DNA from: an uncultured Acidobacteriota bacterium | GTDB taxonomy: Bacteria > Acidobacteriota > Vicinamibacteria > Vicinamibacterales > CAVVIG01 | NCBI GenBank assembly: GCA_963794305.1 | Contig: CAWCDQ010000045.1 | Span: 64,138 to 128,137 of the forward strand | DNA length: 64,000 bases | Reading direction: 5' to 3' | In this document: positions 11,049-53,783 of the stretch, in pieces | Layout: each line of letters starts with the position of its first letter | How positions within the stretch are numbered: the stretch's first letter is position 1 | Notes under the pieces: generated by a model | What the model was told of the DNA's origin: nothing | What the model saw: only the letters and a program-made list of their open reading frames with translations | Databases searched by the model: none | Translations under genes and position numbers: made by a program

Positions 11049-12606
11049 GTGCGAAGGATCGGGCTGCTGACCGCCGCGCTCTTCGCGGTAACGCTCCACG
11101 CGTCGCCTCAGACATCTCAGGCCCAGCCGCCGCCCCAGCCGCCCCCGGTCTTTCGTGCCGGCACGAATCTCGTGCAGGTGGACGCCATCGTCACCGACCC
11201 CGACGGCCATCCGCTCGTCGAGCTCACCGCCGCCGACTTCGAACTGCAGGACGACGGCAAGCCGATGACGATCGATCGAGTGCGTTTCCTCGGCGCCGAA
11301 GACTATTCGGGAGATAGCACGCCTGCGCCGATCCGCACGCACGATGACGAGGAGCGCGAGGCGTCGCGCGACGATGTGCGGGTCTACGCCATCATGCTCG
11401 ACGACTACCACGTCCAGCGCATGGAGGAGCTGCGCGTCATCGAGCCCCTGCTGGCGTTCGTGCGCCAACTGCCGCCGACCGACCTCGTCGCCGTGTACTA
11501 CCCGCTCGACTCGGTGACCGACGTCGCGTTCACCCGGGACCGCGAAGCGGTGTTCAAGGCGATTCGCGCCTTCTACGGCCGTAAAGGCGACTATCAGCCG
11601 AAACGCCCGGTCGAAGAGGAGCACTTGCGCTTTTCGCCAGGGCAACGAGAAACGATTCGCCGCCAGATCGTCACGTCGGCGCTCGAGGGGCTGGCGCTCC
11701 ATCTCGGATCGATCAAGATCGGACGCAAGACAATCATCTTCGTCAGCGACGGGTTCACGCAGCCGGTCGAAGACGTGCGCGACCTGTTTCAGGCCGCCAA
11801 CCGGACCAACACTGCCATCTATCCGCTCGACCCCCGAGGCCTGACCATGGCCAATGGCCGCACGACGAGCGGGATGATAATGAACGGGCTCATGAGCGAT
11901 CGCGACGCGATGGAAACGCTCGCCGCCGAGACCGGCGGCCGCGCCATCGTCCAGAAGAACGACCTCAGCGCCGCGCTCGGGCAGGTGATCCGTGATTCGC
12001 GCGCCTACTACCTGATCGCGTACGAGTCGCCGCATCCCGACGATGGCAAGTTTCACAAGGTCAGCGTGCGCGTGAAGCGCCGGGGCGCCAGCGTGTTTGC
12101 ACGCACCGGCTACTGGGCGTTCAAGCGCGAGCGAAAACACCGCGATGGTGCCCTCGGCGCTGCCGCCCGTGTCGCCTGCCGTGCAGGCGGCCGTCGACAG
12201 GCTGGCCGACTCCCTGCGTCCCGACGCGGACGAGCCGACGGAACGCCCGCGCCGGATGATGATGCCGGCGGCGGCCGCCCCGGCCGCGGCGCCGCTTCTC
12301 GCACCGCCGACGATCGCGGTGGCTCACGGAAAAGCCGTGGGCGAGCCGGTGAAGCGGCGCGAGTTCAGCCGCACCGACACGCTGGTCGTCCGCTCGGAAA
12401 CAAAGCGGACGCCGGTCGTTTCCGGACGCCTGCTCAATCGACGCGGCGACCCGCTGACCGATTTGCCGCTGACGCCCGGCACGGACATGCCTGAGCTGCG
12501 GCTGCCGCTTGGCAGCCTGGGCGCGGGCGACTACGTCATCGAGCTGACGGCCAAGGCCGGCGACGAGACCGTTCAGCAGTACGTCGCGTTCCGCGTCGTC
12601 CGGTAG
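11049..12606 (+). CDS. Secreted VWFA-domain protein, paralog 1 (apparent frameshift)
   Basis: ORFs 11049..12494 (frame 0) and 12097..12606 (frame 1) join at about 12129 (GYWAFKR|SENTAMVPS). Signal peptide, then PVFRAGTNLVQVDAIVTD...FELQDDGKP, as in the two downstream paralogs. Confidence 0.75.
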
Positions 12607-14740: not shown

Positions 14741-14745
14741 TCGGC

Positions 14746-16578
14746 ATGCGCGCTCTCGTCGCGGTGCTCCTCGTCGCAGCGGGGATGAGCGATCAATCAG
14801 CTCTCGCGCCGAAGTCCGCCGGTTCCGATTCCGCTTCCTCGCCCGGTCGCCTCGTCACGATCGACATGACGGTGACCGATGCGCGCGGCCGAGCCCTCAC
14901 CGATCTCAAGCAGTCCGATTTCGAGCTGCGGGAAGGCGCCACGCTGCTGCCGCTGGAATCCGTTCGGCTCGTCCGCGTGGCTCCCGGCCCGCCGTCCGAT
15001 CCGCCGGCGCGGATTCAATCCGCCGCCGACGAGCGTCTCGCCGCCGGGCAGGAACAGTCCCGGCTGTTCGCGATCTACCTGGACGAGTATCACGTCGCGA
15101 GCGGCACCGAGTCGAACCGCGTGCGTGAAGCGCTGATCCGCTTCGTGGACCGCGACGTCTCTCCCGACGATCTCATCGTGGTCCTGAAACCACTCGATTC
15201 GCTGTTGACGATTCGCATGACGCGCGACCGCGACGCCGTGCGGCGCTCGATCGAGAGCTTCGAGGGCCGCAAAGGGGACTACGAGCCGCGCAACGGGTAC
15301 GAGCGTGAGTTCATGGCCGCCACGCCGGCGCGCATCGACGCGGCTCGCGGCCAGGTGGCGCTGTCGGCGATCAACGCGCTCGCGGTCCACCTCGGAAGCC
15401 TGACCGACCGGCGCAAGACGCTGATCGTCGTCACCGACACCGTCGGCCGTACCGATCGGCGGCGCGGCCAGGAGTATCTGCCGACGCTGGACACGATCAT
15501 CCGATCGGCGAACCGGTCCAACGTGGCGGTGTATCCGTTCGACCCGCGCGACATCGCCGACGGCCAGTCGGAAGGCGCCGATCTCCGCCGGCTCGCGGAC
15601 GAAACCGACGGCCGGGCGATCGACGCCGACGCCGATGCCGGCCTGCGGCGCGTGTCAGCCGATTCGAGCGCCTACTACCTGGTGTCGTTCCGCACCGCGC
15701 ATCCCGACGACGGACAGTTCCGCGAGCTGCTGGCGCGCGTCAAGCGGGCGGGCGCGGTCGTGCGCGCGCGAAAGGGATACTGGACGGCGTCGCCCGACGA
15801 GGCGTTGCGCACGGCGCTGATTGCAAAGGCGAACGCGCCGAAAGTGGTCGCGCCGGTGGAACCGCCTCCGCACGCCAGCCCGCTGATTCGTCCGTGGTTC
15901 GGTGTCGCGCGCGGCGAGAATGGCCGGACGCGGGTGACCTTCGTGTGGGAGCCGGCGACACGCGTGCCCGGCGATCGCGTTCGCCGGACCGTGTCGAAGC
16001 TCGAATTCCAGGCGCGTTCGGCCGACGGAGCCGTGCTGTTCGAGGGACCGGTCGCGCCGACCGGTCCCGGGACGATCGACGAGCCGGCAGGGCCGCCCGC
16101 TCGCGTGGTCTTCGATGCGCCGCCAGGGGTGCTGCGCCTGCGCATGTCGATTCAGGATGCGGCGGCGACGGTCCTCGATCAGGACGTGCGCCAGCTGTCG
16201 CTGCGGGACCTGAAGGGCGACGTCGCGATCGGCACGCCGGAAGTCCTGCGCGCGCGGAATGCGCGCGAGTTCCGCGCGCTCGACGCCGAGACCGCCGTTC
16301 CGGTGGCGTCGCGCGAGTTCAGCCGGACCGAGCGCTTGTTGATCCGTTTCCGCGCGTACGGGCCGGCCGGTGAGCCGCCGGTCGTCTCCGCGAAGCTCCT
16401 CGACCGGGTCGGTCACGTGATACACCCGATCGACGTCGTTGGGGCGCCGGCCGCTGGAGAAAACGCCATCGACCTGCCGCTCGCGGGCTTTGCGCCAGGC
16501 GACTACACGATCGAAGTCAAAGCGGCCGGCGGCGGGCACGAAGCGGTCGAGCGGATGCCGTTCCGCGTCACCTACTGA
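14746..16578 (+). CDS. Secreted VWFA-domain protein, paralog 3
   Basis: ATG at 14746 (MRALVAVLLVAAGMS...) inside ORF 12622..16578. Intact to the stop at 16578. Confidence 0.8.
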   Translation: MRALVAVLLVAAGMSDQSALAPKSAGSDSASSPGRLVTIDMTVTDARGRALTDLKQSDFELREGATLLPLESVRLVRVAPGPPSDPPARIQSAADERLAAGQEQSRLFAIYLDEYHVASGTESNRVREALIRFVDRDVSPDDLIVVLKPLDSLLTIRMTRDRDAVRRSIESFEGRKGDYEPRNGYEREFMAATPARIDAARGQVALSAINALAVHLGSLTDRRKTLIVVTDTVGRTDRRRGQEYLPTLDTIIRSANRSNVAVYPFDPRDIADGQSEGADLRRLADETDGRAIDADADAGLRRVSADSSAYYLVSFRTAHPDDGQFRELLARVKRAGAVVRARKGYWTASPDEALRTALIAKANAPKVVAPVEPPPHASPLIRPWFGVARGENGRTRVTFVWEPATRVPGDRVRRTVSKLEFQARSADGAVLFEGPVAPTGPGTIDEPAGPPARVVFDAPPGVLRLRMSIQDAAATVLDQDVRQLSLRDLKGDVAIGTPEVLRARNAREFRALDAETAVPVASREFSRTERLLIRFRAYGPAGEPPVVSAKLLDRVGHVIHPIDVVGAPAAGENAIDLPLAGFAPGDYTIEVKAAGGGHEAVERMPFRVTY

Positions 16579-16997: not shown

Positions 16998-18254
16998 TTA
17001 CGCGTACATCCCGCGCATCCGCGTGACGGTGGCGACGCGGCTGATCGCGACGATGTAGGCGGCTGTCCGCATGTCGACCTTGTACTTCAGCGAGGTCTCC
17101 AGCACGGCATGGAACGCCTCGCACATCTTGGCTTCGAGCCGTTCGTTGACTTCCTTCTCGGTCCAGAAGTACCCGTACCGATCCTGCACCCACTCGAAGT
17201 AGGACGTCGTGACACCGGAGCTGTTGGCGAGAATATCGGGCACGACGAACACGCCGTGGTCGTGCAGGTACTTGTGCGCGTCGGGCGTCGTCGGGCCGTT
17301 GGCGCCTTCGATGATGATCTTCGCCTTGATGGACGGCGCGTTGTCGATCGTGATCTGATTCTCGAGCGCGGCAGGAATCAGGATGTCCACGTCGAGCGAG
17401 AAGAGGTCGGCGTTGGTCAGCGGTTCGCCGCCGGAGTACCCGTCGACCGTCTTGTGCTGCTTGACATAGTCGAGCAGCGCAGGGATGTCGAGGCCTTTGG
17501 CGTTGTAGAGGCCGCCCTTCCAGTCGGTGACGGCGACGATGGTCGCGCCGACTTGCGAGGCGAGCAGCTCGGCTGAAATCGAGCCGACGTTGCCGAAGCC
17601 CTGGACTGCGACTTTCGCGCCCTTGATGTTGAGGCCGACGTGGTTGGCCGATTCGCGCGCCGCGATCATGACGCCGCGTCCCGTCGCTTCGCGCCGGCCG
17701 AGCGAACCGCCCATCTCGATCGGTTTGCCGGTGACCACGGCCGTCGAGGTGTGGCCAACGTGCATGGAGTAGGTGTCCATCACCCACGCCATGATCTGCG
17801 CATCGGTGTTGACGTCGGGCGCAGGAACGTCTTTCTCGGGACCGATCGCGTCGACGATCTCCGCGATGTAGCGGCGCGTCAGCGCCTCGACTTCGCGCCT
17901 CGACATCTTCGTGGGATCGCAGATCACGCCGCCCTTGCCGCCGCCGAACGGGATGTGCGCGACGGCGCATTTCCAGGTCATCCACGCCGCCAGCGCCGTG
18001 ACTTCGTCGAGCGTCACTCCCGGGTGGAACCGGATGCCGCCCTTGGCCGGACCGAGCGTGATGTTGTACTGGACCCGATAGCCGGTGAAGACTTCGATCT
18101 CGCCGTTGTCCATCTGGATCGGACAGGAGACCGTGATTTGACGTTTCGGGTTGGTGAGGATCTTCCAGATGCCCGGCTCGAGATTGAGGATGCGGGCGGC
18201 TCCGTCGAACTCCTGGAGCATCGCGTTGAAAATCGAACCGTTCGTAGCCGCCAT
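16998..18254 (-). CDS. gdhA: Glutamate dehydrogenase (Glu/Leu/Phe/Val dehydrogenase family)
   Basis: 418-aa ORF with [17 protein letters not shown] and GFGNVG (Rossmann) motifs. Confidence 0.92.
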
Positions 18255-18350
18255 GAGGCTCCTAGTCCAAGCGCGCCAGACTACCCCTGTCCGGCTGTAC
18301 TAGTCAAACACCGTGCTGACAGCCGAAGGCGTCGGAAGGGATCGGGCGGG

Positions 18351-18356
18351 TATAAT
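18351..18356 (+). promoter_or_regulatory. Perfect TATAAT -10 box 9 nt upstream of the mutase ATG (possible leaderless transcript)
   Basis: gggcgggTATAATgttcagtgtATG. No good -35 box was seen. Confidence 0.35.
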
Positions 18357-18365
18357 GTTCAGTGT

Positions 18366-20030
18366 ATGAAAACGGTTGCCGAGAGCGGCAAGGCGCGATG
18401 GCAGCACGAGACGCTCGAGCCGGCGCTGAAGAAATCGCCCGAACGCGCCACGAGCTTCACCACGATTTCCGGGCGGCCGATCGAGCCGCTCTATACCGCC
18501 GAGGATGTCGAGGAGATTGACTACACACGGGACGTCAACAACCCCGGTGTGTTCCCGTACACGCGCGGCATCCACCCGACCGGCTATCGCGGCAAGCTGT
18601 GGACGATGCGCCAGTTCGCCGGCTTCGGCACGCCGGAGGACACCAATCAGCGCTACAAGACGCTCCTGAAGGCGGGCGGCACCGGGCTGAGCGTCGCGTT
18701 CGACCTGCCCACGCTGATGGGACGCGATCCCGATCACGAGCTGTCGCTCGGCGAAGTGGGGAAGTGCGGCGTCAGCATCATGTCGCTGGCCGACATGGAA
18801 ACGCTCTTCGACGGCATCCAGCTCGGCGACATCACCACGTCGATGACGATCAACTCGCCGGCGGCGATGATCTTCGCGATGTACCTCGTCGTGGCCGAGA
18901 AGCAGGGCGCCGACTGGAAGACGATCTCCGGCACGATCCAGAACGACATCCTGAAGGAGTTCATCGCCCAGAAGGAGTACATTTTCCCGCCGCGGCCGTC
19001 GATGCGGCTCATCACCGACGTCTTCGCGTTCTGCTCGACGCAGGTGCCGAAGTGGAACACGATCTCGGTGAGCGGTTACCACATCCGGGAGGCGGGGGCG
19101 ACCGCGGTCCAGGAACTGGCGTTCACGCTGCGCGACGGTCTCGAGTACGTGCAGTGGGGCGTGGACGCGGGCCTCGACGTGGATGCGTTCGTGCCGCAGA
19201 TCTCGTTCTTCTTCAACGCGCACAGCGATTTCTTCGAGGAGATCGCCAAGTACCGCGCGGCGAGGACGATCTGGGCGCATGCGATGCGCGATCGGTTCCA
19301 CGCCAGGAACGAGCGGTCGTGGAAGCTGAGGTTTCACAGCCAGACCGCCGGCGTCTCGCTCACCGCGCAGCAGCCGTACAACAACGTCGTCCGCACGGCG
19401 CTGCAGGCGCTCTCCGCCGTGCTCGGCGGAACCAACTCGCTGCACACCAACTCGCTGGACGAGGCGCTCGCGCTGCCAACCGCCGAAGCCGCCACCCTCG
19501 CGCTGCGCACGCAGCAGATCATCGCCCACGAAAGCGGCGTGGCGAATGTCGTCGATCCACTTGGCGGCTCGTATTTCGTCGAGCGGCTGACCAGGGACAT
19601 GGAGGAGGGCGCGCTGGCGTATTTCAGGACCATCGACGCCATGGGCGGCATGGTCGAGGCGATCGAGCGCGGGTTTCCCCAGCAGGAGATTGCCGAGAGT
19701 TCGTACCGGTTTCAGCAGGCGTTCGAACGCAAAGAGAAGATCATGGTCGGCGTCAACGCTTTCGTGCAGCAGGACGATCCGCCGATCGAGATCCTGTACA
19801 TCGACGAGTCGACGTCCGACACGCAGCTCGCCAAGCTCGAAGCGCTCCGGAAGACGCGGAACAACGACGCGGTCAAGCGGACGCTCGACGCGCTGCGGAC
19901 CAGTGCGCGGACCACGGAGAACCTGATGCCGCGCATCCTGGACGCCGTCCGCGCCTATGCGACCGTCGGCGAGATGTGCGATGCCCTCCGCGAGGTGTGG
20001 GGGGAATACGAGGAAGTGCCGATCATCTAG
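18366..20030 (+). CDS. Methylmalonyl-CoA mutase family, catalytic (large) subunit
   Basis: ATG at 18366 within ORF 17640..20030. Motifs: [54 protein letters not shown]. Confidence 0.9.
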
Positions 20031-20121
20031 GGCCTGGGGATTGGGGATCAGGGGCTAGGTTGGGGCTGGTCGTGACAGCCGGATGAGCCTCCAGCCCCTA
20101 ACCCCTAGCGCCTAGCCCCTG
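20031..20121. repeat. Word-repeat hairpin, GGGGCT(A/G)G family
   Basis: ggcctggggattggggatcaggggctaggttggggctggt ... cctccagcccctaacccctagcgcctagcccctg. It fills the spacer between the two mutase subunits. Confidence 0.75.
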
Positions 20122-20124
20122 AAT

Positions 20125-20523
20125 ATGAGAAAGCTCAGAGTCGTCATCGCCAAACCCGGCCTCGATGGCCACGACCGCGGCGCCAAGGTCATCGCGCGCG
20201 CCTTGCGGGACGCGGGCATGGAGGTGATCTATACAGGTCTCCGCCAGACGCCCGAGATGATCGCGTCGGCGGCGCTGCAGGAGGACGCCGACTGCATTGG
20301 CCTGTCGATCCTGTCAGGCGCCCACAACCACATCGCGCCGCGTCTCATGGAACTGCTCCGCGAGAAGGGGCTCGACGACGTGCTCGTCGTGATTGGCGGC
20401 ATCATCCCCGACGTCGACATCCCAAAACTGAAGGAAATGGGCATCAAGGGCATCTTCCTGCCCGGCACCCCCATGCAGGACATCATCGGCTTCATCAATG
20501 CCAACGTCCGGGCGCGGGTTTGA
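20125..20523 (+). CDS. Methylmalonyl-CoA mutase B12-binding subunit
   Basis: 132-aa ORF with the [23 protein letters not shown] (DxHxxG) cobalamin-binding motif. Confidence 0.9.
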
Positions 20524-20580
20524 GCCCGGAAAACCCCTGTACCCTGAAGTCTGGAGTCTGAAGTTCCGATAAGTCAGACC

Positions 20581-21776
20581 GTGCCGCATACCCTCCTTCT
20601 CGCAGACGACAGCGTCACGATTCAGCGCGTCATCGAACTGACGTTTGCCGATGAGGACGTGACCGTCGTCGCCGTCAGCAACGGCGACCAGGCCATCGAG
20701 CGGCTCGAGGCGTCGCCGCCCGACATCGTGCTCGCCGACGTCGGGATGCCGGGCAAGAGCGGCTACGAGGTTGCGCAGTACATGCGCCGTTCGCCCAGGC
20801 TCGAGCACATTCCGGTCGTGCTGTTGACCGGCGCATTCGAGCCGGTGGATCAGGCGCGCGCCGACGACGCAGGCTGCGACGGAGTGCTCGCCAAGCCGTT
20901 CGAGCCGCAAATGGTGATCGGTCGCGTGAAGGAACTGCTGGGCCGGCCACAGCGCACGACGACGTCTCCTTCATCGCAGCATTGGTCGGCAGCCGGCGAT
21001 GCCGATTCCCCGGCGCCGCCGCCAGCCGATCTCAATTCATATTTCGATCGGCTCGATTCAGCATTTGGCCCGCCGGCGCCCGACTCGGCGTCAGGCGCCA
21101 CACCGGACGAGGTGCCCCTCTCTCCTCAGGCCGCACCGCAAACGGGACTCGATTGGTTCAGCGGTCTTGCCCAAAACGATCGGAAGGAGGCGTCGGATTC
21201 GGCGGGCACGACCGAAGCGGCGCTGGATCTTCCGTTGACCGCTCCGTTGCCGCAAATCGAGGCGCTGGCGGCGCTGACACGCTCGTCGGAAGAGCACCTG
21301 GCGAAGCTCTCTGACGTTGAACCGATGCCGGTGCTTGCGCCTGCCGTGGAGTCGTCCTGGACCGGTGCCGCGGCCCCGATCGAGCACGCGGCGATTGTCG
21401 AACCCGAAGTTCCTGTCGCACCCGTCGCGCAGAGCACGCCTGTAGAGGCGTTCGCTACGTCCGACGCCGCTGCGCCGGCTGTTCCTGCGGCGCATGCCAG
21501 CTCCAGGTCCCGCTGAAAAACCCGCCGCCGCTCCCGCCGCTCGCCGATGCCTTCGCGGCTTTGCTGGCCGCCGAAAAGGGCGGAACCATGTCGGCAGGCA
21601 CCACATGGCCCGCCCCGCCATCGTCTCCCGCTGTCGTGAGCGCCGAGATGATCGAGGCCATCACGCGCCGGGTTCTCGAGCGGCTCTCAGACGCGGTCGT
21701 TCGGCAGACGGTGTCGGACATCGCCGAGCGGCTCATTCGCGAAGAGATCGAGCGGATCAAGGCAACCATCAAATAG
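20581..21776 (+). CDS. Response-regulator receiver protein with Pro/Ala-rich linker and conserved helical C-terminus (apparent frameshift)
   Basis: ORF 20581..21516 has a REC domain (LLADDS...DIVLADVGMPGKSGYEV...AKPFEP). The C-terminal part (PLADAFAALLAAEKGG...EMIEAITRRVLERLSDAVVRQTVSDIAERLIREEIERIKATIK) is in another frame (ORF 21561..21776). The frame change lies between 21490 and 21545. Confidence 0.7.
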
Positions 21777-29164: not shown

Positions 29165-29317
29165 TTACCCGAGCGGGTTGCGTTTCAGTCCGCCGACAAC
29201 GTTCCGGAGTTCCGAACCGGTCGGCTCCTTCGGCTTGAGCGTTTTTAGAGAGGCTTTCCGGGTGGCGTCGGCGGGACTCGCGGACGACGGTCTCTTGTTC
29301 TTGGTGGACTTCTTCAT
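29165..29317 (-). CDS. Unlisted 50-codon ORF: candidate double-glycine-leader precursor peptide with 7-residue cargo
   Basis: My own translation of the reverse complement gives MKKSTKNKRPSSASPADATRKASLKTLKPKEPTGSELRNVVGGLKRNPLG*. GGAGGG (plus-strand ccctcc 29323-29328) lies 5 nt upstream of the ATG at 29317. The ORF sits 110 nt downstream of the SelO-like gene on the same strand, next to a C39 exporter. It is too short for the 60-aa ORF track. Confidence 0.55.
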   Translation of the reverse strand: MKKSTKNKRPSSASPADATRKASLKTLKPKEPTGSELRNVVGGLKRNPLG

Positions 29318-29427
29318 GACAACCCTCCATGCTGCGACGACCTGCTCAGCGGTGTCGCAAGCTGATACGAAATGCGAATCAGCGCGCGAATGCTAGCACA
29401 TCATCGGCTGCTCCTTCCAACGAGAAC

Positions 29428-31089
29428 TCAGCGCCTGCCGCACACCTCCACCCCTCGCCGAGTCATTCCGTCGAGCGCGGCCGATCCGACCGGGTTGTGA
29501 GCCAGAATCCCGTCGATAAATGCCTGCACCCGACGAGGATATTGTTGCCCCCGATCCGAATACTGACGAACCAGTGAGGAGATCCGCGAAACAAGCCGCG
29601 CACGTCGGTACGCGTGCAATGGGACATGACCGTGTTCTGCGCGCGAGCACATTGCGTCGCACACGGTCCGCCATTTCTCCGAATCGCTGGCGGTGACGAG
29701 CCGCGCTGCGGCCATGACTTCTCCGTAAGCGCGCGTCAGCCGATCCAGATGCCTGTGCGCGAGTTCGCGAGTACGCCGCCGCCGAGCCATCGTCCCGGAC
29801 ACCTGAATGCGCGCCAGTGTGCGAACCACTTCGGTATGATCCGCCTCCGGGCGCCGGAGGTAGCGTCGCGGCAACAACGAGAGCAGCCGAAACACATCCA
29901 CCACGCTGATGCCCCGGCCGGTCGCGGTCCTCGCGTCCAGCGTTCCCGGATTTCTGAGCGCTATCAGACGACTCAGCACCTGCACGAAGCGCCCGACGAC
30001 CGGAGGGTGATGGCATCGCACGCGGAGGGCGAGGGTCTCGTCGAACCCGGCGGCCTTCAGAAACTGAATCGAGAGCTCTTCCTCGTAGCACCTGTGAAAT
30101 TCGGCGACGCAATCAAGGCCGTCGGCGCCGAGAGCGCTCCGTCGTTCAGGCGTCAGCGACTCCGTCACGCACAGAAACATCGCGTGCAGGTGCGGCACTC
30201 TGGAGAGGTGTTCCCGCCCGAAGACCGCGTCACGGCGTCGTTGACGCGCGGCGTGCATCGGCGCAGTGCGGTCCTGTGTCGTCATCAGCCACACATCGAG
30301 CATCTCGCCAAACAGCCCCATGTTCGATGTGGAGAGCGCTCCGTGCAGCACGCGCCATCGGACTTGCTCGGCGGCCGTGCGAGCCTGCAGGCGAAGGATG
30401 CGCCGCATCGTATCGGCCAGCTGCGGTCGGCCGTCTCTTGTGACCAGGACGCCACCGTATCGGGCGAGCTTCACGAAGAGCGTCGGCAGATCGCTGAGGT
30501 CTTCGCCGAGCTGCCGAACCAAATGCGCTGGACGATAGGGTGCACCACAGCGGGCAATCACCGCCGCGCGCGCAAGACCGCCATCGACCTCCACGGTGCG
30601 TCCTTGATCGAGAATCGCCACGACCCGTGCGGCACCAGCCGAGAAGATACGCGTCGCGAGCTCGCCGTAGACGGCCTCGGCGATCGCGTGAACAAGTTGG
30701 AGCCCGCCGTCCCGATGACGCGGGCCGCCCACGCCCGCCAGCGGCGTCCGCCCGATCCCTTTGAGGAACACGTTCTTCGAGAGCAAGATGCCGCCTCGAG
30801 CCGAGCCCGCGTGGTCGCCCATGGCGGAACCGTAGTACCGATCGCAATGGAGTGTGACGACAGCACGGCGGCCCGCCGCCTGGCCAGCCTCGATCGCCCG
30901 GCACGAGAATGCGTCGACGAGCTGCCGCTCGAGGCGTCGGCTGAGGCGATTCTCGCGTGGTACTGAAAAGCCCATTTGCCGGGCGACCTCGAAGTTGCAC
31001 CACAGTACCCGCGCTGGAACGACGGCCGCCGGGAACGGCGACAGCGTGCGTGCTCCGAGAGCGCCGAATCGAAGAGAAGGCGCGCGCAT
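29428..31089 (-). CDS. Divergent SelO/YdiU-like kinase-fold protein (putative nucleotidyltransferase) with long Arg-rich helical C-terminal extension
   Basis: 553-aa intact ORF. By-eye matches to SelO family motifs: RYYGSAMGDHAGSARGGILL, FLKGIGRTP (Lys of LKGxGxTP), DGGLQLVHAIAEAVYGE, and RVLHGALSTSNMGLFGEMLDVW (compare HGVLNTDNMS..G.T.DYG). Confidence 0.65.
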   Translation of the reverse strand: MRAPSLRFGALGARTLSPFPAAVVPARVLWCNFEVARQMGFSVPRENRLSRRLERQLVDAFSCRAIEAGQAAGRRAVVTLHCDRYYGSAMGDHAGSARGGILLSKNVFLKGIGRTPLAGVGGPRHRDGGLQLVHAIAEAVYGELATRIFSAGAARVVAILDQGRTVEVDGGLARAAVIARCGAPYRPAHLVRQLGEDLSDLPTLFVKLARYGGVLVTRDGRPQLADTMRRILRLQARTAAEQVRWRVLHGALSTSNMGLFGEMLDVWLMTTQDRTAPMHAARQRRRDAVFGREHLSRVPHLHAMFLCVTESLTPERRSALGADGLDCVAEFHRCYEEELSIQFLKAAGFDETLALRVRCHHPPVVGRFVQVLSRLIALRNPGTLDARTATGRGISVVDVFRLLSLLPRRYLRRPEADHTEVVRTLARIQVSGTMARRRRTRELAHRHLDRLTRAYGEVMAAARLVTASDSEKWRTVCDAMCSRAEHGHVPLHAYRRARLVSRISSLVRQYSDRGQQYPRRVQAFIDGILAHNPVGSAALDGMTRRGVEVCGRR

Positions 31090-31110
31090 ACGCCGCGTAG
31101 AATACCGTGT

Positions 31111-32181
31111 GTGCCGTCATGCTTGGCGAACCCTCGATGGAAGCAGGGAGTGTTTTCTGTCGGCGGTCGCGATTACGAGTGGCTGGACATTTTTCTCGCG
31201 GCAATGCTGCGCGGTGAGTGGCGCGCGTTCGAGACGCGACTGGTTGAAGCCCTTGCCTGCCTGGCTGAAGCAAGCGAGGAGCAGTATTGGCCCGACGCGG
31301 ACCGCATCGACGCCGCAGCGAGCGCCTTCCGGTACGATCGCGACCTCCTGACGAGCGACGCGACCATTGCCTGGATCGAGCAGGAGGGTCTGACCCTCGA
31401 CGACTGGACCAACTTCCTGGTGGGACGCCTCCTCGTCGAGGAGTGGAGCGATCGACTCGCGCTGGTCGATCGGCATGCGCCGTCGCCGACTGTCACAGAT
31501 AGCGCCTTCGCCGCCGAGGGCATCTGCTCCGGAGCCTTCGATGCATGGGCCAGCACCCTCGCCGGACGGGCCGCCGTCGCGGCGACGGCGGCGAACGTCG
31601 AACTGGAGCACGCGCCCATCGACGATGCGCGCCTCGAGCGGGCTCGAAGGGATCATTCGGCCTGGCTCGAGCCGATCGAGCCAGCCATCCTTGCCGATCG
31701 GCTGATGTTCCTGGACCGGCTGCACTCGACGTTTGACGCACAGGCGCGAGCCAGGACCACGCCTGAGGCGCTTACCGCGCAACTCACGCGCAATCGCCTC
31801 GAATGGATGCGGGTGGACCTGGAACGCCTCTCGTTCGCCACTGTCGATGCGGCGCGCGAAGCGGCGTGGTGTGTGCTCGAAGACGGGCTCACCCTTGATG
31901 ACATTGCCGTCGATTTAGGGCTTGCCGTCCACGACTCGTGCGAGCTGATCGAGCGGCTCGACCCCGAGGTGCGCGAGGCTGTCCTTGGCGCCAACGTCGA
32001 TCAGCTCATCGGACCGGTGAAGGTTGGCGACCGCTACGAGGTGATCTGGGTTGTCGGCAAGGCTGTACCAGACCTCGCCGATCCGTTGGTCTCCGCCCGC
32101 GCGGCGACCGCCGCGATCGAACAACTGGTCGCGATGGCCACACGCTCGCACGTCCGCTGGGTGGGTCTGCCCCGGTTCTGA
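31111..32181 (+). CDS. Hypothetical protein with C-terminal parvulin (PpiC)-like segment
   Basis: In ORF 30976..32181, whose 5' end overlaps the divergent gene. In-frame starts are GTG 31111, TTG 31123 and GTG 31150, so the start is unresolved. The C-terminus SFATVDAAREAAWCVLEDGLTLDDIAVDLG...LGANVDQLIGPVKVGDRYEVIWVVGKAVP resembles a rotamase domain. Confidence 0.55.
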   Translation: MPSCLANPRWKQGVFSVGGRDYEWLDIFLAAMLRGEWRAFETRLVEALACLAEASEEQYWPDADRIDAAASAFRYDRDLLTSDATIAWIEQEGLTLDDWTNFLVGRLLVEEWSDRLALVDRHAPSPTVTDSAFAAEGICSGAFDAWASTLAGRAAVAATAANVELEHAPIDDARLERARRDHSAWLEPIEPAILADRLMFLDRLHSTFDAQARARTTPEALTAQLTRNRLEWMRVDLERLSFATVDAAREAAWCVLEDGLTLDDIAVDLGLAVHDSCELIERLDPEVREAVLGANVDQLIGPVKVGDRYEVIWVVGKAVPDLADPLVSARAATAAIEQLVAMATRSHVRWVGLPRF

Positions 32182-32229
32182 GTTATCCTCAGCTGGGTTC
32201 GGTCCCGGAGCGGAGGACTTGGCTGTGGG

Positions 32230-35200
32230 GTGGCGCGAGTGAGCGACCATGGCGTTCTCGACGAGTTGCCGATCCTCAGATTCCTGCCGGAGGGCGTTCG
32301 GGCGAACGTGATCCGGCGGTTCGTGCCGGCTTCGTTTCCGTTCGGCTCGGTGATCGTCGCTGAAGGCTCGCCCTCCGACGCGTTCTACGTCCTCGTATCT
32401 GGCAAAGCGCGCGTGGTCAAACGCGGCTCGACCGGAGACGAAATCCCCCTGAACGTGCTGCGCGCGGGCGACAGTGTCGGTGAAGCCGAGCTCCTGGATG
32501 GTGCGGTGCGCCCGTCAACAGTGCGGGCGAGCACACACGTTCTGGCGCTGCGGCTCGATGCCGACGAATTCCGGACCCTCGTCGATGCTCACCCCGACAT
32601 CCGGACCTACCTCGAACTGCAGCTCAAACACGCCCGCCTGCAAGCCTTCTTTCGCAACATGCCGGCGTTTGCGCGGCTGCCGGCTGAAGCGGTCGCTGGA
32701 GTGGTCCTTGCCGAACTGGAACCAGTGGTCCTCGACGCTGGCGAACTCGTCTACCGTCACGGCGACTCCGCCGGACCGCTGTATCTGATTGAACAAGGCC
32801 GCGTGCGTGTCCTGCAGAGCGCCAACGGTCGTTCGAACTATGTGGCGACGCTGGGAGCGGGCGAATCGTTTGGCATCGTGTCAGCGGTGCGCCGATCGCC
32901 CCGGACCACCACCGTCGAGACCATGACATCGGTACGGCTCCTGACCCTCAGCGGCGAGACGCTGGAGCGTCTCGCCGCGGCCTTGCCACAATTCCGCACA
33001 ATGCTGGACGACTGGATCGCTCAGCACGATTTCCGCAACATCGCCAACGTTCCGGCCGACATCGATCAGGAGCTGCTGCCCGCAGGTGCTGCGGCGCAAC
33101 AGTCCGTCAGCGAAGCCCAGGTCGATCAAACGGAAGACGAGGTCGACGAGGCCGATCTCGATGCGCCATTTGCTGAAGGCGGCCACTTCGTCAAGGCTCA
33201 CCGCCGTCGACGCGTGCCCTTCATCCAGCAAATCGACGAGGTGGATTGTGGCGCAGCATGCCTGGCGATGGTCACTCGCGCGTTTGGTCGGCGCGTCAGC
33301 CTCGCCCGCATTCGTCAGCTCGTGAACACCGGTCTGGACGGCACCAGTCTTCGATCGATCTGCCGAGCGGGCGAAGAACTGGGCCTGGCGACTCGCGCGG
33401 TCAAGTCGGCGACCGGCCATCTCGACCAGATGCCTCTGCCCGCCATCGTCCACTGGGACAAGTACCACTGGATCGTCGTGGTTACCGTCGATCGGAAGCA
33501 CGTCAAGGTGATCGATCCCGCTCTGGGGCGGCGGACGCTGGCGCGGGCGGAGTTCGAGAGCAGATGGAGTGGCTACGCAGCGCTGTTCGACTACACGCCC
33601 GACTTCGAGCAGGCACCGCAAGCGACTCGCCGGCTGGCGTGGACGTGGTCGCTCGTCAGGCCGCACGCGGGGCTTCTGGCGCAAGGCCTGGGGCTGGCCG
33701 TTGTCGTGAGCGCGCTGCAGATGGTGCTGCCCGTGTTCACGCAGGTGATCGTCGACCGCGTTCTCGTCGATCAGGATCTCTCGCTGCTCTATCTCCTCAT
33801 CGTCGCCATGGCCACGACGATGGTGTTCATCGTTATGTCGCTGTTGTTGCAGCGGTACCTGGTGAGCTTCTCCGCGGTCCGTATCGACGCGGCCGCCCTC
33901 GACTACATCACCCGGCGCCTGCTCGCGCTGCCGATGTCGTACTTCGCGTCGCGGCGCACCGGCGATTTGCAGCGCCGCCTCGAAGGCGTTCGACACGTAC
34001 GAGACGTCCTCGCCCAGCATGGCATCGCCGGCATCACTGCTGTCGCGCAGCTCGGCGCGACCGTCATGCTGATGGCGTTCTACAGCCGATGGCTGACCGT
34101 GGTGTTTCTCGCAACCGCGCCGCTCTACGCCCTGTTGATGCTCATGGCCGCCAAGCTGCTGCGGCCGATCTTCCTGGATCTCGAGGATTCATTCAGCAAG
34201 TACCACTCGTATCAAATCGACGCGATCAAGGGGATTGAAACAGTCAAGGCTCTGGGCGGCGAATCGGCGTTCCGCCGGCTGCTGCTCGGCCAGTTTCTGG
34301 GGGTGTCGGACAAGATCTTCAAGGCGGACTTCACGGCGATGACCTACGAGGGGGCCATCGATGCGGTGACCTTTCTTGCCGTCGGCCTCTTCCTCTGGGC
34401 GGGGGCATACCAGGTCTTGAATGGCAGGCTGTCGATTGGCGGCCTGGTGGCATTCAACTCGCTCGTGGCGCTGGCCAACACGCCCATTCGCAATCTGCTG
34501 GTGCTCTGGGACAACCTCCAACGCTGCGACGTGCTGCTCAATCGGGTCGACGACGTGTTGCAGCAGGAACCCGAGCAGGGTCACGACCGCTCGGCACTGC
34601 GGCCGGTCTCGAGCCTCGCCGGGCACGTGACGTTGAGCAACGTCGGCTTCCGTTACGGCGGTCCTGAGGCACCCGCCATCCTCGAACACGTGACCCTCGA
34701 TGTGCCCGCCGGCAAAGTGGTCGCCATCGTCGGCCGCAGCGGATCGGGGAAGACGACGGTGGCCAAGTGCATGGCCGGTCTGCTCGAGCCGACTGAGGGC
34801 ACGATTCTCTACGATGGGCTCGACCTCAGGACGTTGAACTACCGAGATCTGCGGCGCCAGATCGGGTTTGTGCTGCAGGATTCGTATGTGTTTGCCGATA
34901 CCATCGCGCGCAACATCGCGTTCGGCGAAGACGAGCCGGACATGGACCGTGTCGCGTGGGCGGCGGAAGTGGCCGGCGCGAGCGAGTTCATCACGCGGCT
35001 GCCGTTTGGTTATGACACTCGCATCGGCGAAACCGGCCTGGCGCTGTCAGGCGGTCAACGCCAGCGGATTGCCATCGCCCGTGCCGTCTACAACAGGCCG
35101 CCGATCCTGATTTTCGACGAGGCGACCAGCTCGCTCGACGCCGAATCGGAGCGGGCGGTGCAGCAGAACATCGATTCGCTGCTCGAAGGCCGAACGGCGT

Positions 35201-35358
35201 TTGTCATCGCCCATCGAATGAGCACGGTTCAGAACGCCGACGTCATCATCGTCATCGAGCGCGGCCGGTTGGTCGAACAGGGCACTCACGACGATCTGAT
35301 CGCGCGGCGCGGCCTCTACTACTATCTGGTCAGCCAGCAGCTTGGAGCAGGTGGGTAG
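32230..35358 (+). CDS. Peptidase-C39 ABC exporter (PCAT) with two N-terminal cyclic-nucleotide-binding domains
   Basis: 1042-aa intact ORF. Two CAP-type cNMP domains (GDSVGEAELLDGAVRPSTVRA; GESFGIVSAVRRSPRTTTVET). C39 domain with IDEVDCGAACLAMV (Cys) and HWIVVV (His). Six-helix TMD. Walker A GRSGSGKTT, signature LSGGQRQRIAIARA, Walker B ILIFDEATSSLD. Confidence 0.92.
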   Translation: MARVSDHGVLDELPILRFLPEGVRANVIRRFVPASFPFGSVIVAEGSPSDAFYVLVSGKARVVKRGSTGDEIPLNVLRAGDSVGEAELLDGAVRPSTVRASTHVLALRLDADEFRTLVDAHPDIRTYLELQLKHARLQAFFRNMPAFARLPAEAVAGVVLAELEPVVLDAGELVYRHGDSAGPLYLIEQGRVRVLQSANGRSNYVATLGAGESFGIVSAVRRSPRTTTVETMTSVRLLTLSGETLERLAAALPQFRTMLDDWIAQHDFRNIANVPADIDQELLPAGAAAQQSVSEAQVDQTEDEVDEADLDAPFAEGGHFVKAHRRRRVPFIQQIDEVDCGAACLAMVTRAFGRRVSLARIRQLVNTGLDGTSLRSICRAGEELGLATRAVKSATGHLDQMPLPAIVHWDKYHWIVVVTVDRKHVKVIDPALGRRTLARAEFESRWSGYAALFDYTPDFEQAPQATRRLAWTWSLVRPHAGLLAQGLGLAVVVSALQMVLPVFTQVIVDRVLVDQDLSLLYLLIVAMATTMVFIVMSLLLQRYLVSFSAVRIDAAALDYITRRLLALPMSYFASRRTGDLQRRLEGVRHVRDVLAQHGIAGITAVAQLGATVMLMAFYSRWLTVVFLATAPLYALLMLMAAKLLRPIFLDLEDSFSKYHSYQIDAIKGIETVKALGGESAFRRLLLGQFLGVSDKIFKADFTAMTYEGAIDAVTFLAVGLFLWAGAYQVLNGRLSIGGLVAFNSLVALANTPIRNLLVLWDNLQRCDVLLNRVDDVLQQEPEQGHDRSALRPVSSLAGHVTLSNVGFRYGGPEAPAILEHVTLDVPAGKVVAIVGRSGSGKTTVAKCMAGLLEPTEGTILYDGLDLRTLNYRDLRRQIGFVLQDSYVFADTIARNIAFGEDEPDMDRVAWAAEVAGASEFITRLPFGYDTRIGETGLALSGGQRQRIAIARAVYNRPPILIFDEATSSLDAESERAVQQNIDSLLEGRTAFVIAHRMSTVQNADVIIVIERGRLVEQGTHDDLIARRGLYYYLVSQQLGAGG

Positions 35359-35359
35359 G

Positions 35360-36580
35360 ATGCCAAGTTCCACTGACGTGCTATTTCTGGATTCGACGCC
35401 GCCGCCGTGGGCGGCCCGCGCGTTGGCCTGGGTCCTGCTGGCGCTTTTCGGTGTGGCCGCGCTCGCGCTGATCCTCGTTCAAGTGCCCGAGACGGTCGCC
35501 GCACCCTTCGTCCTGGTTTCTGAGCACGGGTCCGATCCGGTGCGCACGCTGCACGACGGCATCGTGACGGGTGTTTCCGTCGCTGATGCCCAGACGGTCG
35601 AACCTGGCACCGTCCTCTACACCATCAGCTCCGAAGCGGTCGGCGATCGCACGGCGGAAAGGACGGCGCTTGGAAACAGCCTGTCGGGCGGGCAGATGCA
35701 TCTCGCCAACGAGCGGAGCAAGTACGACAACCAGCGTCAGGCCGATGAGCAGGAAGTCGGCCGGCTGCAGCAGCGCCTGACCGCGATCGCGTCGCAAGTG
35801 CTGCTCAAAGAACGCCAAGTGCAGAACGCGCGGGAGATCGCCGCACGCCAGCAGCGCAGTTTCGAGGAGGGCCTCACCAGCTGGATCGAAGCATCGAAAC
35901 CGAGAATGGATACCGATCGCCTCTCCGTGGAGCTCGAAGCGGCCCGGGCGGAATCAGTGGAGACGCAGGCGGCGCTCTCGCGGCAGCGTTTCGAGATGGC
36001 CTCCCGAAAGGCGGCCTTCGACGAACTGAATCGCAGCGTCAGAGAGGAGCTCGATCGCACCCGCGTGCGCAAAGGCATGCTGGATGCCGAGTCCTCTCGG
36101 CAGGGGAGTGTCCTGACTATCCGCGCACCGTGCTCGGGGACCATCCTGAAGCTGGTGGTCCGAAACCCCGGCACCGTGGTGCACGGCTCCGAGGTGCTCG
36201 CCGAGATCACGTGCCGCGACAATCGGCTGCAGGCCGAGCTGATGGTGCCGCAGCGTGGGCTGGCGATTTTGCGAGCCGGGCAACCGGTCAAGCTGCAGTA
36301 CGACGCCTTCCCGTATCAACGCTTTGGCGTGCGCTACGCGACGCTTCGTTGGATCAGCCCAGCTTCGTCTACGCCGGAGACCGGTGGATCGTTTCGAGCG
36401 CTGGCAGACTTGGACGACCAGATTCTCCACATCGGCGGCCAGCCCCGCGCCGTCCTGCCGGGCATGGGCGGTCAGGCGTCCATCGTGGTCGGACGGCGAT
36501 CCTTGGCGAGCTACGCACTGGAGCCGCTGCGCCAAATGCGCGAGGTGATGTCATCGGGTCGATCCGCCGGCGGAATCTAG
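35360..36580 (+). CDS. HlyD-family membrane-fusion (periplasmic adaptor) protein
   Basis: In ORF 35342..36580, with the ATG at 35360 just after the exporter stop. N-terminal TM, long coiled coil (QRQADEQEVGRLQQRL...), C-terminal beta-barrel (GQPVKLQYDAFPYQRFG...LPGMGGQASIVVGRRSL). Confidence 0.85.
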   Translation: MPSSTDVLFLDSTPPPWAARALAWVLLALFGVAALALILVQVPETVAAPFVLVSEHGSDPVRTLHDGIVTGVSVADAQTVEPGTVLYTISSEAVGDRTAERTALGNSLSGGQMHLANERSKYDNQRQADEQEVGRLQQRLTAIASQVLLKERQVQNAREIAARQQRSFEEGLTSWIEASKPRMDTDRLSVELEAARAESVETQAALSRQRFEMASRKAAFDELNRSVREELDRTRVRKGMLDAESSRQGSVLTIRAPCSGTILKLVVRNPGTVVHGSEVLAEITCRDNRLQAELMVPQRGLAILRAGQPVKLQYDAFPYQRFGVRYATLRWISPASSTPETGGSFRALADLDDQILHIGGQPRAVLPGMGGQASIVVGRRSLASYALEPLRQMREVMSSGRSAGGI

Positions 36581-37287: not shown

Positions 37288-39304
37288 TCACATTCGATTC
37301 GGGATGTCTATGCCCATCAGATCGAGCGCCCGCGTGAGCTGCGCGCGCACGTATGCCACACCGGCGGCGCGCCACCGCTTCCGATCCGCGTCTTCTTCGC
37401 CCAGGATCGGATACCGATGGTAGAACGCGTTGAACGTCTGCGCCAGCCCGAACGTGTACTTGGCCAGGCCCGAGAACTCCAGCGATCGGACGACCGACTC
37501 GACTACCTCATCCAGGCGCGATGCCTCGAAGACCACGGCCCACAGGTCGTGGGTCGGGTCGTCGGACCCTTCGGCGAGCTCGCTGGCTGACGCCGGGTCG
37601 AGCCCTGCAAGCACGTCCGCCTCCGAGACGCCTTCGCGTTCCTGCAGCTTGTGCAGGATATTGCGCGCGCGGACGACGGCGTACTGCAGGTACGGGCCGG
37701 TCTCACCTTCGAAACTCAGCGCCTCTTCGATGTCGAACACGATCAGCTTGCCGCGGGAGAACTTCAGCATGAAGTACCGGATCGCCGCGACGGCGATCTG
37801 CGCGCCGGCGCGCTGGCACTCCTCCGGAGGTGAACTCAGGGTTGCGCTGCGCGACCTCGGCCGCCGCCTTGTTCGTCAACAGGTCGAGCAGATCGTCAAT
37901 CTTGACGCCGAGCCCCTTCCGTCCGGAGACCTCGACGAACGGCTTCCGCGCGTCTTCCGCCGCTGTTTCGTAGCCCAGTTCGCGCGCCGTCGCGTGCGAC
38001 AGCGCGACCATCTCGTAGGAGAAATGAATCGAGTTCTCGGCTTCCGTCGGATGTCCCAGCGTCCGCAGCGCCTGGCTGAGCAGCGCCTGCAGATACATCT
38101 GCCGCGAGTCGATGACGTTGAAGATCCGTCGTGCGTTTCCGAACGATGGCGCTCCCGGATCGGTGTCTGCCGAGGTCGTGGCCCACAACGAACGCTCATG
38201 CGCCTGCATCGCGAATCGCCGATAGCGGAAATCGAGACCAAGGAGCCCGAACTTCCAGAACTGGTTGGCGAGATCCTTGCCAACGTAGGTGACGACGCCG
38301 TTCGAGCGGACGATGACTTTCTCTCGCTGCTCGGGATCCTCGCCCTCGTCGGACTGGTCCGCGGCTGGTTGTCCGTCCGCGCTCTTCGCGGTTCCGTCGT
38401 CGATTCGCATGACCCAGCAGCCGGCGAGCTTGCCTTCCGTTTGCAGGAACACCGCTCCCTGGGCTTTCAGCGTTTCGAAGGCGTGCGTCCAGAAGTGCAG
38501 GCGCAGGATGTCGCCCTCGTAGGTCAGCAGGTCGTAACCGATGTTGAGGCGCGCCATCGTCTTCAGGTGCGCGCGGACGATGCGATCGACGATGAACGTG
38601 CCCATCGCGGCGGTGTCGTTGCCGCCGTGCTCGAGGTCGTGCAGAACGGCGGCGCGGATGGCCAGGCGCTGCTTGTCGCCGTCGTACCATTCGGTGACCC
38701 TGGAGTACAGATCCCAGCAGTAGTAGTCGAAGCGCGTGGTGTCCGCGATCGTTCGCACGGCGTCGAGCGTCAGCTGTTCGATCTCCCGGAACCCGACGAT
38801 GACGTCGGCCACCTGAACGCCCGTGTCGTCGATGTAGTTCTGGGTCTCGACCGGCGTGCCGCGGAAACTCAAGGCCCGCACCAGCGTGTCGCCGAGCGCC
38901 GCATTGCGGAGGTGGCCGATGTGCGCGGCCTTGTTCGGGTTGATCGCCGTGTGCTCGACGATGGTTTTCTCCCGCGCTTCCAGCGCCGGTGTCACCTGTT
39001 GACGAACGCGGGCGGTGAAGAACGGAGCGCGCTCGATGTACAGATTCAGGTAGCCGTTCGGCGTCGCGACAACGCGGGCGATGCCTGGAATGTCGCCAAG
39101 CGCCTGGCTGAGTTCCTGCGCGATGTTTCGCGGCGCCTTACGAAGGACGCGGGCGAGCTGGAAAGCGACGGGCACGGCGAGATCGCCAAGGGTTCGCGTC
39201 GGCGGGACTTCGATGGCGAACGCCGGCACATCGGCGACGCCGAAGTGTTTCCGGATCGCCTCGCTGATGGCGTCGTGAACGTGTCGTTGAAGGCTGAGAA
39301 TCAT
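37288..39304 (-). CDS. argS: Arginine--tRNA ligase (apparent frameshift)
   Basis: ORF 37703..39304 (N-terminal part, INPNKAAHIGHLRNA) and ORF 37288..37770 (C-terminal anticodon-binding part). They join at about 37828 (NPEFT|PEECQRAGAQIAVAAIRYFMLKFSR); one extra base. Confidence 0.9.
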
Positions 39305-51780: not shown

Positions 51781-53718
<1,938 letters not shown>

Positions 53719-53719
<1 letters not shown>

Positions 53720-53783
53720 ACGTGAGAAGTCAGAAGTGAGAAATCTGAAATCTGAAATCTGAACCCTGAAGTCTGAAATTCTC
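53719..53783. repeat. Tandem heptamer run, CTGAAAT/CTGAAGT family
   Basis: gacgtgagaagtcagaagtgagaaatctgaaatctgaaatctgaaccctgaagtctgaaattctc fills the dnaK-dnaJ spacer. Related runs occur at 20536-20580 and 24533-24580. Confidence 0.75.

Follow-up and report, generated by a model that had tools for sequence, protein, structure and literature searches.

We analyzed a 64,000-nucleotide stretch of DNA from an uncultured Acidobacteriota bacterium (contig CAWCDQ010000045.1, positions 64,138 to 128,137; hereafter the window), and focused on a five-gene cassette within it that encodes a 50-residue precursor peptide with a double-glycine (GG) leader, a SelO-like enzyme, a parvulin-like chaperone, a peptidase-containing ATP-binding cassette (ABC) transporter (PCAT) and a HlyD-family adaptor. 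We find that the cassette belongs to the PCAT-dependent GG-peptide systems, a kind already known, and that its candidate tailoring enzyme has the SelO fold, for which we found no report of a precursor peptide in the searchable literature. Judged from the sequences, its cargo is of unusually small size, and two domains of the nucleotide-sensor type stand in tandem in the exporter. The reading that we favor, to which we give even weight for and against, is that the cassette specifies a secreted signaling or antimicrobial micro-peptide resembling a ribosomally made, post-translationally modified peptide (RiPP), with the SelO-fold enzyme as its tailoring enzyme.

The product of the small open reading frame (ORF) is MKKSTKNKRPSSASPADATRKASLKTLKPKEPTGSELRNVVGG/LKRNPLG, where the slash marks the predicted cleavage site; it has a net charge of +10, and its C-terminal part reads TGSELRNVVGG/LKRNPLG. 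The original prediction, which was made from the window alone, had placed a five-gene block here and had pointed to a strong Shine-Dalgarno (SD) sequence and a C39-type GG motif in the small ORF. Indeed, all five ORFs are present, with the peptide and SelO-like genes on the minus strand and the chaperone, exporter and HlyD genes running divergently on the plus strand, and both the SD sequence and the GG motif are borne out. As expected of a GG leader, the window peptide has Gly at positions -2 and -1, with Val -4, Leu -7 and Glu -8 before them, and in five loci the peptide gene is adjacent to that of a PCAT; position -12 is Pro in the main group of precursors and not a hydrophobic residue. Homologous small ORFs are found directly downstream of SelO-like genes at loci L001, L002, L034, L035, L037 and L038, and each of the six loci for which there is DNA has a purine-rich SD-like sequence before the ATG. 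Searching with a profile of these peptides added 24 further members, which gives 32 distinct precursors with 18 distinct tails. Invariant in all 32 are M1, L(-7), V(-4), G(-2) and G(-1), within the motif [E/D]LxxVxGG, and C39 peptidases read exactly these positions. The leader is strongly conserved in the main group (KNKGRSSSNAAEARRKKASSLKTLKPKxxTSEELRQVVGG); leader identity is only 26% for the most divergent precursor, MSNEPKKKKKVKPETASDAVESKDDKELGDEDLENVSGG/TAATVSPALRDALNKAGSVGRA.

The small ORF recurs in independent metagenomes with its SD sequence and with substitutions of the coding type. Between the window and L001, the 24 codons before the cleavage site differ by 12 synonymous and 6 non-synonymous changes. 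Moreover, the tail LGSRTAEK is the same in L001 and L037 despite four synonymous changes, and 11 of 24 leader codons differ between these two loci; because the tail is identical with synonymous changes only while the leaders have diverged, the tail itself is under purifying selection. It could be argued that the small ORF arose by chance and that its neighborhood is coincidental, since high-GC DNA is rich in spurious ORFs (121 are listed in 11.5 kb), but this explanation is effectively refuted by the 32 homologous precursors with their conserved start, SD sequence and GG motif, by the synonymous excess and by the fixed position beside the SelO-like gene, and we consider its probability negligible. 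On comparative grounds, the small ORF is real and conserved. The exact window peptide is already annotated as a ‘hypothetical protein’ on six public contigs.

The predicted exported tails have a constrained character. Across the 18 tail types, length is 7-11 residues, with one exception of 22. Every tail contains at least one Lys and has a net charge of +1 to +3, and Pro is found in 15 of the 18, the typical form being basic-basic-x-Pro-(Leu/Pro)-small. The C-terminal residue varies among G, A, V, T and K. Five tail types, including the LKRNPLG of the window, contain no Ser, Thr or Tyr.

The 553-residue enzyme encoded beside the peptide had been called SelO-like, a call that holds for its fold, its motifs and its family profile; the protein falls below all curated thresholds for SelO/YdiU, and only one basic subclade of its family is linked to the peptide. 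The window protein has no Pfam match at E ≤ 0.1, and with NF000658 (YdiU) of NCBIfam it reaches 14 bits, where the cut-off is 431. Faint precomputed SelO matches are recorded for two homologues, and when 18 family members were scanned singly, 8 matched Pfam SelO (PF02696), with a best E of 1.4e-5. The family profile matches the structures of Escherichia coli YdiU/SelO (E 0.014) across the KGxGxTP, RxxxxxRxxH and HGxxxTxNM...D motifs. An AlphaFold2 (AF2) model of the protein (predicted local distance difference test score, pLDDT, 72; predicted template modeling score, pTM, 0.70) gave nine Foldseek matches in the PDB at E ≤ 0.001, all of them to YdiU/SelO (E 1e-10 to 5e-9, template modeling (TM) score 0.42-0.54), so that this is the sole significant PDB fold (PDB 6EAC, 6K20). 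In Pseudomonas syringae SelO, residues K113, E136, R176, R183, N253 and D262 bind the flipped ATP and Mg2+ (PMC8097203). The equivalent residues K110, E138, R180, R186, N256 and D265 are invariant in the 18 sequences, align to the YdiU motifs and retain the same N-x8-D spacing. The window protein differs from SelO/YdiU in its low identity (∼17%), its extremely basic character and the dedicated small peptide gene alongside. From the profiles and the model, it is a divergent enzyme of the SelO fold and is probably catalytically competent. By curated thresholds, it lies outside SelO/YdiU and its sequence places it in a separate, larger and uncharacterized family.

A word-indexed search for homologues found the 18 sequences, and a full HMMER scan of 1.84 billion representatives yielded 1,346 members at E ≤ 1e-10, of which 248 pass E ≤ 1e-30. 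The family comprises two forms. The long form, of 700-800 residues, is near-neutral with an extra C-terminal beta-rich domain and occurs in metagenome-assembled genomes (MAGs) of Pyrinomonadaceae, Blastocatellia and Myxococcota (L003-L031); it is marked by the motif RWRxxHGAxSxSNMxxxGxxLD, in which Ser takes the place of the Asp of SelO. The short form, to which the window protein belongs, is a narrow clade from soil metagenomes whose members share 49% identity or more with the window protein, and no homologue above 37% identity to that protein was found among GTDB species representatives. The two forms differ in charge: short-form proteins (P0001-P0008) have a net charge of +34 to +46 and a pI of ∼11, compared to -23 to +24 for the long form (P0009-P0017). 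We found nothing relevant in the searchable literature that links SelO/YdiU to a precursor peptide, a RiPP or a biosynthetic gene cluster.

The evidence that ties this enzyme to the peptide is the conservation of their pairing. Nine loci of the peptide-linked subclade continue beyond the SelO-like gene, and in all nine this short-form gene is followed, 5-153 nt away and on the same strand, by a gene for a GG peptide; in the window, the spacer is 110 nt and the small ORF is downstream. These loci are the window, L034, L001, L002, L035, L037, L038, P0090 and P0101, the last two taken from gene tables, and the loci of the 657-residue form (L032, L033) lie outside this count. No peptide, chaperone or exporter was found by tblastn beside 29 long-form genes, no peptide turned up when 700 nt downstream from 25 long-form genes were scanned for the motif, and no conserved neighborhood was seen at long-form loci L003-L031. 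Therefore, the link is specific to one clade and does not extend to the whole family. The window, L034, L001 and the P0090 locus each have the full set of five genes side by side, and L038 has part of it, with the peptide followed by the chaperone. The cassette is collinear and contiguous in L001 and in the P0090 locus, which lies on a 335-kb contig with unrelated flanks and encodes, in order, proteins of 545, 51, 373, 1038 and 406 residues; the window and L034 have the enzyme and peptide genes in the opposite orientation to the chaperone-exporter-HlyD genes. The small ORF and the gene combination thus recur in related genomes, which had been proposed as a check.

This pairing bears on a different account of the enzyme, in which an unmodified, pheromone- or bacteriocin-like GG peptide is exported by the PCAT, and the SelO-like enzyme leaves the peptide alone. 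Its targets for AMPylation or UMPylation would then be cellular proteins or the exporter apparatus, with a role in producer regulation, immunity or stress response, and it would be co-transcribed with the peptide because the two respond to one signal. The tails need no modification in order to function, many GG peptides are unmodified, and known SelO/YdiU enzymes do act on cellular proteins; in addition, the window tail offers no hydroxyl acceptor and both enzyme and peptide are cationic. However, the enzyme and peptide genes remain paired even at loci that have the exporter elsewhere, a pattern expected of enzyme and substrate, not of a co-regulated bystander, and only the peptide-linked clade has become extremely basic and lost the C-terminal domain, which suggests adaptation to the partnership. 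We regard this account as a serious possibility but on the whole unlikely.

The exporter is predicted from its domains to process and secrete the peptide. The Pfam matches are two cNMP_binding domains (E 1.9e-39), Peptidase_C39 (3e-36), ABC_membrane (2e-39) and ABC_tran (3.9e-33), all of which clear the Pfam thresholds by far, and the adaptor, a type-I HlyD protein, matches HlyD_3 (1.4e-14); together with alignments to PCAT1, ComA and HlyB, these matches confirm the architecture first proposed, of two cNMP domains, C39 and ABC followed by HlyD. Past its first ∼320 residues, the exporter aligns end-to-end with those three proteins, and residues 327-1035 align to residues 11-722 of PCAT1 (4ry2). 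Both C39 signatures are present, Q-x4-DCG and HWIV-x10-VIDP, and since these motifs are intact, the peptidase is predicted to be active. With 522 bits against a cut-off of 853, the exporter falls short of the NHLP-type equivalog TIGR03796. The juxtaposition of exporter and HlyD genes is repeated in L001, L034, L041 and the P0090 locus. Compared to the GG pheromone and bacteriocin systems of ComA, PCAT1 and CvaB, the cassette shares Val -4, Leu -7 and Glu -8 and a full-length homologous exporter, but its leader is 43 residues long and polycationic rather than ∼15-25 residues, has Pro at -12 and precedes a cargo far shorter than is typical.

The exporter had been described as cNMP-gated; the cNMP domains are present, while gating is suggested by the domains alone. 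HetC of Nostoc PCC 7120, a PCAT of a Gram-negative organism that is thought to export a signaling peptide, likewise combines an N-terminal cNMP-type domain with an active C39 domain and an ABC exporter, and its cNMP-type domain binds ppGpp in vitro (PMC10986499). HetC differs in having one such domain, no adjacent adaptor and no known cargo, whereas the cassette has two domains, HlyD and an adjacent candidate GG cargo.

The fourth protein was originally called parvulin-like, and it does contain a domain of the parvulin fold, but it is not an orphan: from sequence and model, it is a distant relative of TIGR04500/MirC, with a SurA-like cytoplasmic architecture and a gene beside that of a PCAT. 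The AF2 model (pLDDT 93.8) has its best PDB matches in the SurA, Cj1289/PEB4 (3rgc) and PrsA chaperones, and residues ∼221-305 match the parvulin domains 3gpk and 1zk6 with probability 0.99-1.0 and target TM of 0.65-0.71. The Pfam match to Rotamase_2 is weak (E 0.067), and the two His residues of the parvulin active site are not apparent by eye; nor is a signal peptide evident, likewise by eye only. TIGR04500 matches the window protein at E 5.8e-5 with 22 bits, below the cut-off of 180, and weakly matches 29 of 31 homologues (best E 3e-13, all well under 180 bits). The chaperone family is broader, with 71 homologues, and is uniformly acidic, with net charges of -7 to -40. The window, L001, L041 and the P0090 locus all have the chaperone gene immediately upstream of the PCAT gene. 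The gene as listed spans 30976-32181 (+), but translation probably begins at the GTG at 31150, which would match the 343 residues of a 97%-identical homologue (P0019).

The relation to MirC is of interest in that MirC is a cytoplasmic SurA-like partner protein on which the graspetide synthetase MirB depends for both activity and solubility; MirC is required for rosaritide, co-purifies with the synthetase and is encoded in a cluster that also holds a TIGR03796-type PCAT (PMC13097080). The mirABCD cluster thus resembles the cassette in its precursor, modifying enzyme, cytoplasmic SurA-like TIGR04500-type protein and PCAT. It differs in that its enzyme is an ATP-grasp ligase and not a SelO-like protein, and in that the window chaperone keeps its parvulin-fold domain and is genetically tied to the exporter instead of the enzyme. 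A second parallel is raxX-raxSTAB of Xanthomonas oryzae, which makes a sulfated RiPP and has the same compact Gram-negative layout: a precursor of ∼50-60 residues, one cytoplasmic tailoring enzyme, the C39 PCAT RaxB, the HlyD-type RaxA and an outer-membrane channel encoded elsewhere (PMC6637879, bioRxiv 10.1101/442517). RaxX, however, is tailored by a tyrosine sulfotransferase and its mature peptide is longer with a Tyr acceptor, whereas the cassette has a SelO fold, a tail of 7-11 residues that is often free of hydroxyls, two cNMP-type domains on the exporter and the added SurA-like chaperone.

We propose that the precursor would be made in the cytoplasm, with a polycationic leader that ends in a canonical GG and, in the window, a tail of seven residues. 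The acidic SurA-like protein would bind the basic leader, and possibly also the very basic enzyme, and deliver the precursor; we suggest this partner role because of the MirC precedent and the charge complementarity (chaperone -27, peptide +10, enzyme +36). The charge pattern fits a chaperone-bridged complex, and the enzyme could also bind another polyanion. Before export, the SelO-like enzyme would modify the precursor using a nucleotide donor, a step that we propose because of the strict gene pairing and the intact active site of the SelO type. The C39 domain would then bind the leader and cut after Gly43, as expected from the PCAT family, and the ABC transporter and HlyD, with an unlinked outer-membrane channel, would expel a tail of 7-11 residues with a net charge of about +2, usually of the form basic-basic-x-Pro-x-small. 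The N-terminal cNMP-type domains may make export depend on a nucleotide signal inside the cell, be it cAMP, cGMP or ppGpp. Once outside, the peptide would most likely serve as a pheromone-like signal or a narrow-spectrum antimicrobial.

The absence of Ser, Thr and Tyr from LKRNPLG leaves no hydroxyl target in the exported part, and therefore canonical O-AMPylation is impossible there. The likeliest targets would be the Lys amine, which every tail has, or a terminal group, the carboxylate included; alternatively, Ser or Thr of the leader may be modified as an export licence. NiRAN, which has a SelO-like fold, reportedly transfers a nucleoside monophosphate (NMP) to a primary amine on nsp9, and the kinase-fold enzyme SidJ is said to adenylate a carboxylate. 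One might also envisage a Trojan-horse peptidyl-nucleotide like microcin C, in which the SelO-like enzyme adenylates the C-terminus of the tail, and the product is exported, taken up by a competitor and processed there to a toxic aminoacyl-nucleotide analogue. The size of the tails resembles that of the MccA heptapeptide, NMP transfer is predicted and SidJ reportedly makes acyl-adenylates, but no MccB/ThiF-like domain and no dedicated immunity gene were found in the cassette. Furthermore, microcin C needs a terminal Asn/Asp for a stable phosphoramidate, whereas the C-termini of the tails vary, and a plain acyl-adenylate would be unstable. We rejected the analogy, on account of the variable C-termini and the lack of MccB in the cassette, and think it very unlikely to be right. 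A fuller version of the RiPP-like reading holds that a new RiPP family is defined by the short, highly basic SelO-like clade, whose enzyme in complex with an acidic SurA-like partner would nucleotidylate a non-hydroxyl group (a Lys or terminal amine, or a carboxylate) of a peptide of 7-11 residues, or make another modification derived from phosphoryl transfer, before a nucleotide-sensing PCAT secretes the product as a signal or antibiotic; we offer this version tentatively and consider it rather doubtful.

Several observations weigh against tailoring of the peptide by the SelO-fold enzyme and its secretion by this exporter. With respect to the enzyme, Ser precedes the metal-binding Asn throughout the family (HGALSTSNM), where SelO has Asp (HGVMNTDNM), and the region of the catalytic loop has low confidence in the AF2 model. 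With respect to the substrate, the known chemistry of SelO cannot act on the exported part of the 5 of 18 tail types that lack a hydroxyl, direct attraction between an enzyme and a peptide that are both strongly cationic is disfavored, and we know of no PCAT cargo as short as seven residues. With respect to the pairing, no peptide was found downstream in L032 and L033, which encode the 657-residue form (52% identical). Finally, the coupling to export is not obligatory: the enzyme-peptide pair occurs without nearby export genes in four loci (L002, L037, L035, P0101), and the chaperone-exporter-HlyD genes occur without a SelO-like gene in L041, a Vicinamibacterales MAG, and in the P0026 locus. 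The genes thus fall into two modules, the pair of enzyme and precursor and the export triad, the latter generic; about half of the observed cases have them joined, in two orientations. The claim that the five genes together form a peptide system unlike recognized classes is supported, in that the combination recurs and the profiles and folds agree with the SelO-like and C39 assignments, with the correction that the triad is generic and that pair and triad also occur apart.

The separate occurrence of the pair might instead be taken to mean that enzyme and peptide work inside the cell as an enzyme and its substrate or regulator, with PCAT cleavage after GG removing or inactivating the peptide upon a nucleotide signal and the heptapeptide a mere by-product. 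The 43-residue leader is far better conserved than the tail in most comparisons and is rich in Ser and Thr, the normal acceptors of SelO. Yet the most divergent members share only the GG motif, with no leader Ser/Thr conserved between them, and it would be unexpected for a by-product to be constrained in length, charge and composition, or for one tail to be kept through synonymous change. This explanation seems to us quite unlikely, and we retain the secreted, RiPP-like peptide as our favored reading.

Other genes near members of the two modules were noted. In L041 (JAXLRB010000002.1), 18168-19379 (+) encodes a Cys-rich protein of 403 residues without a Pfam match, whose C-terminal end, ...MAAKKPAKKVRVKDMKPAKSIKGG/AAKKAY, combines a Lys-rich stretch, GG and a basic tail of six residues; the gene is ∼2.7 kb from the block of chaperone, cNMP/C39/ABC, HlyD and sigma54 activator genes, and its product may be a second kind of cargo or an enzyme fusion for the same export triad. 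The P0026 locus has two ORFs of 58-60 residues before the chaperone gene and encodes a 947-residue protein and a HlyD-like protein after it. Directly upstream of the pair in L002 (2009-5291) are genes for an MvdD-type ATP-grasp protein, a sulfotransferase, a JmjC/cupin protein and a PhyH dioxygenase, which resemble RiPP tailoring genes. In L040, a frameshift-ridden contig, a chaperone homologue lies ∼8 kb from a LanB-type lanthipeptide dehydratase (10001-11158 and 19049-21158).

Table 1. Features of the cassette and apparent indels elsewhere in the window (positions are those of the window)
Feature	Position	Strand	Basis
Precursor peptide gene, 50 aa + stop	29165..29317	-	ORF list, homologues and coding pattern
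Precursor leader, residues 1-43, ending in ELRNVVGG	29189-29317	-	Motif read from sequence
Predicted exported tail, LKRNPLG	29168-29188	-	Residues after GG
GGAGGG, Shine-Dalgarno sequence of the peptide gene, 5 nt before its ATG	29323..29328	-	Sequence
SelO-like enzyme (protein-kinase fold, predicted NMP-transferase), 553 aa, net charge +36, loop HGALSTSNM	29428..31089	-	Profiles, model
Putative cytoplasmic SurA/PrsA-like chaperone with C-terminal parvulin-fold domain, 343 aa, net charge -27	31150..32181	+	Model, TIGR04500 relation
PCAT exporter, 1042 aa	32230..35358	+	Pfam, NCBIfam, PDB alignment
Exporter, domain 1 of two N-terminal domains of cNMP-binding type	~32332-32589	+	Pfam
Exporter, C39 peptidase	~33214-33591	+	Pfam
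Exporter, ABC transmembrane domain	~33691-34482	+	Pfam
Exporter, ATPase	~34681-35130	+	Pfam
HlyD-family periplasmic adaptor (membrane fusion protein)	35342..36580	+	Likely ATG at 35360, just past the exporter stop
Apparent assembly indels (argS, dnaK and acyl-CoA dehydrogenase/MeaB ORFs)	37288-39304, 51781-53739, 61315-62832	-, +, +	Profile matches

The coordinates of the cassette and its parts are given in Table 1. The domain scan agrees with the housekeeping flanks first described, a TRAM/U5 RNA methyltransferase on one side and a Peptidase_C26 amidotransferase and argS on the other, the latter split by a frameshift. The indels suspected elsewhere in the window are also seen: argS is present as two overlapping ORFs, the dnaK ORF is partial, aligning to the HSP70 profile only through position 345 of 599, and one ORF fuses acyl-CoA dehydrogenase with a fragment of MeaB. 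On contig L034, which is 92% identical, frameshifts fall within the cassette itself. As had been reported, no TolC-like partner is apparent, in that a scan of 27 further large ORFs in the window gave no match to an outer-membrane-factor family. An Rfam scan of the window gave no RNA features, the 110-nt spacer between enzyme and peptide genes is not unusual in structure (z = -0.96), and no sigma-70-like promoter was found. Anti-phage defence was considered and rejected, as PADLOC returned just generic domain matches, to the exporter. Upstream in the window, an ORF of 1318 residues at 12622-16578 (+) has a coding-like GC content at third codon positions (GC3 0.83) and no Pfam match at E ≤ 1e-5.

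SelO/YdiU enzymes are conserved from bacteria to humans, but what they act on is diffuse and debated. An enzyme of this fold tied to a single 50-residue peptide would permit clean chemistry, which would be non-canonical for the exported part. If the modification were shown, the cassette would represent a new RiPP class and would extend the principle of a MirC-type partner protein beyond graspetides. If the proposal is true, the product would be the first SelO-dependent natural product, the precursor the first dedicated small substrate of the SelO family and the exporter the first cNMP-domain PCAT with an identified cargo. The peptide is, in any case, a candidate cargo for the cNMP-domain PCATs, whose only studied member, HetC, has no known substrate. 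To our knowledge, cell-cell communication in uncultured soil Acidobacteria is essentially unexplored, and the cassette points to peptide signaling or antagonism in these organisms.

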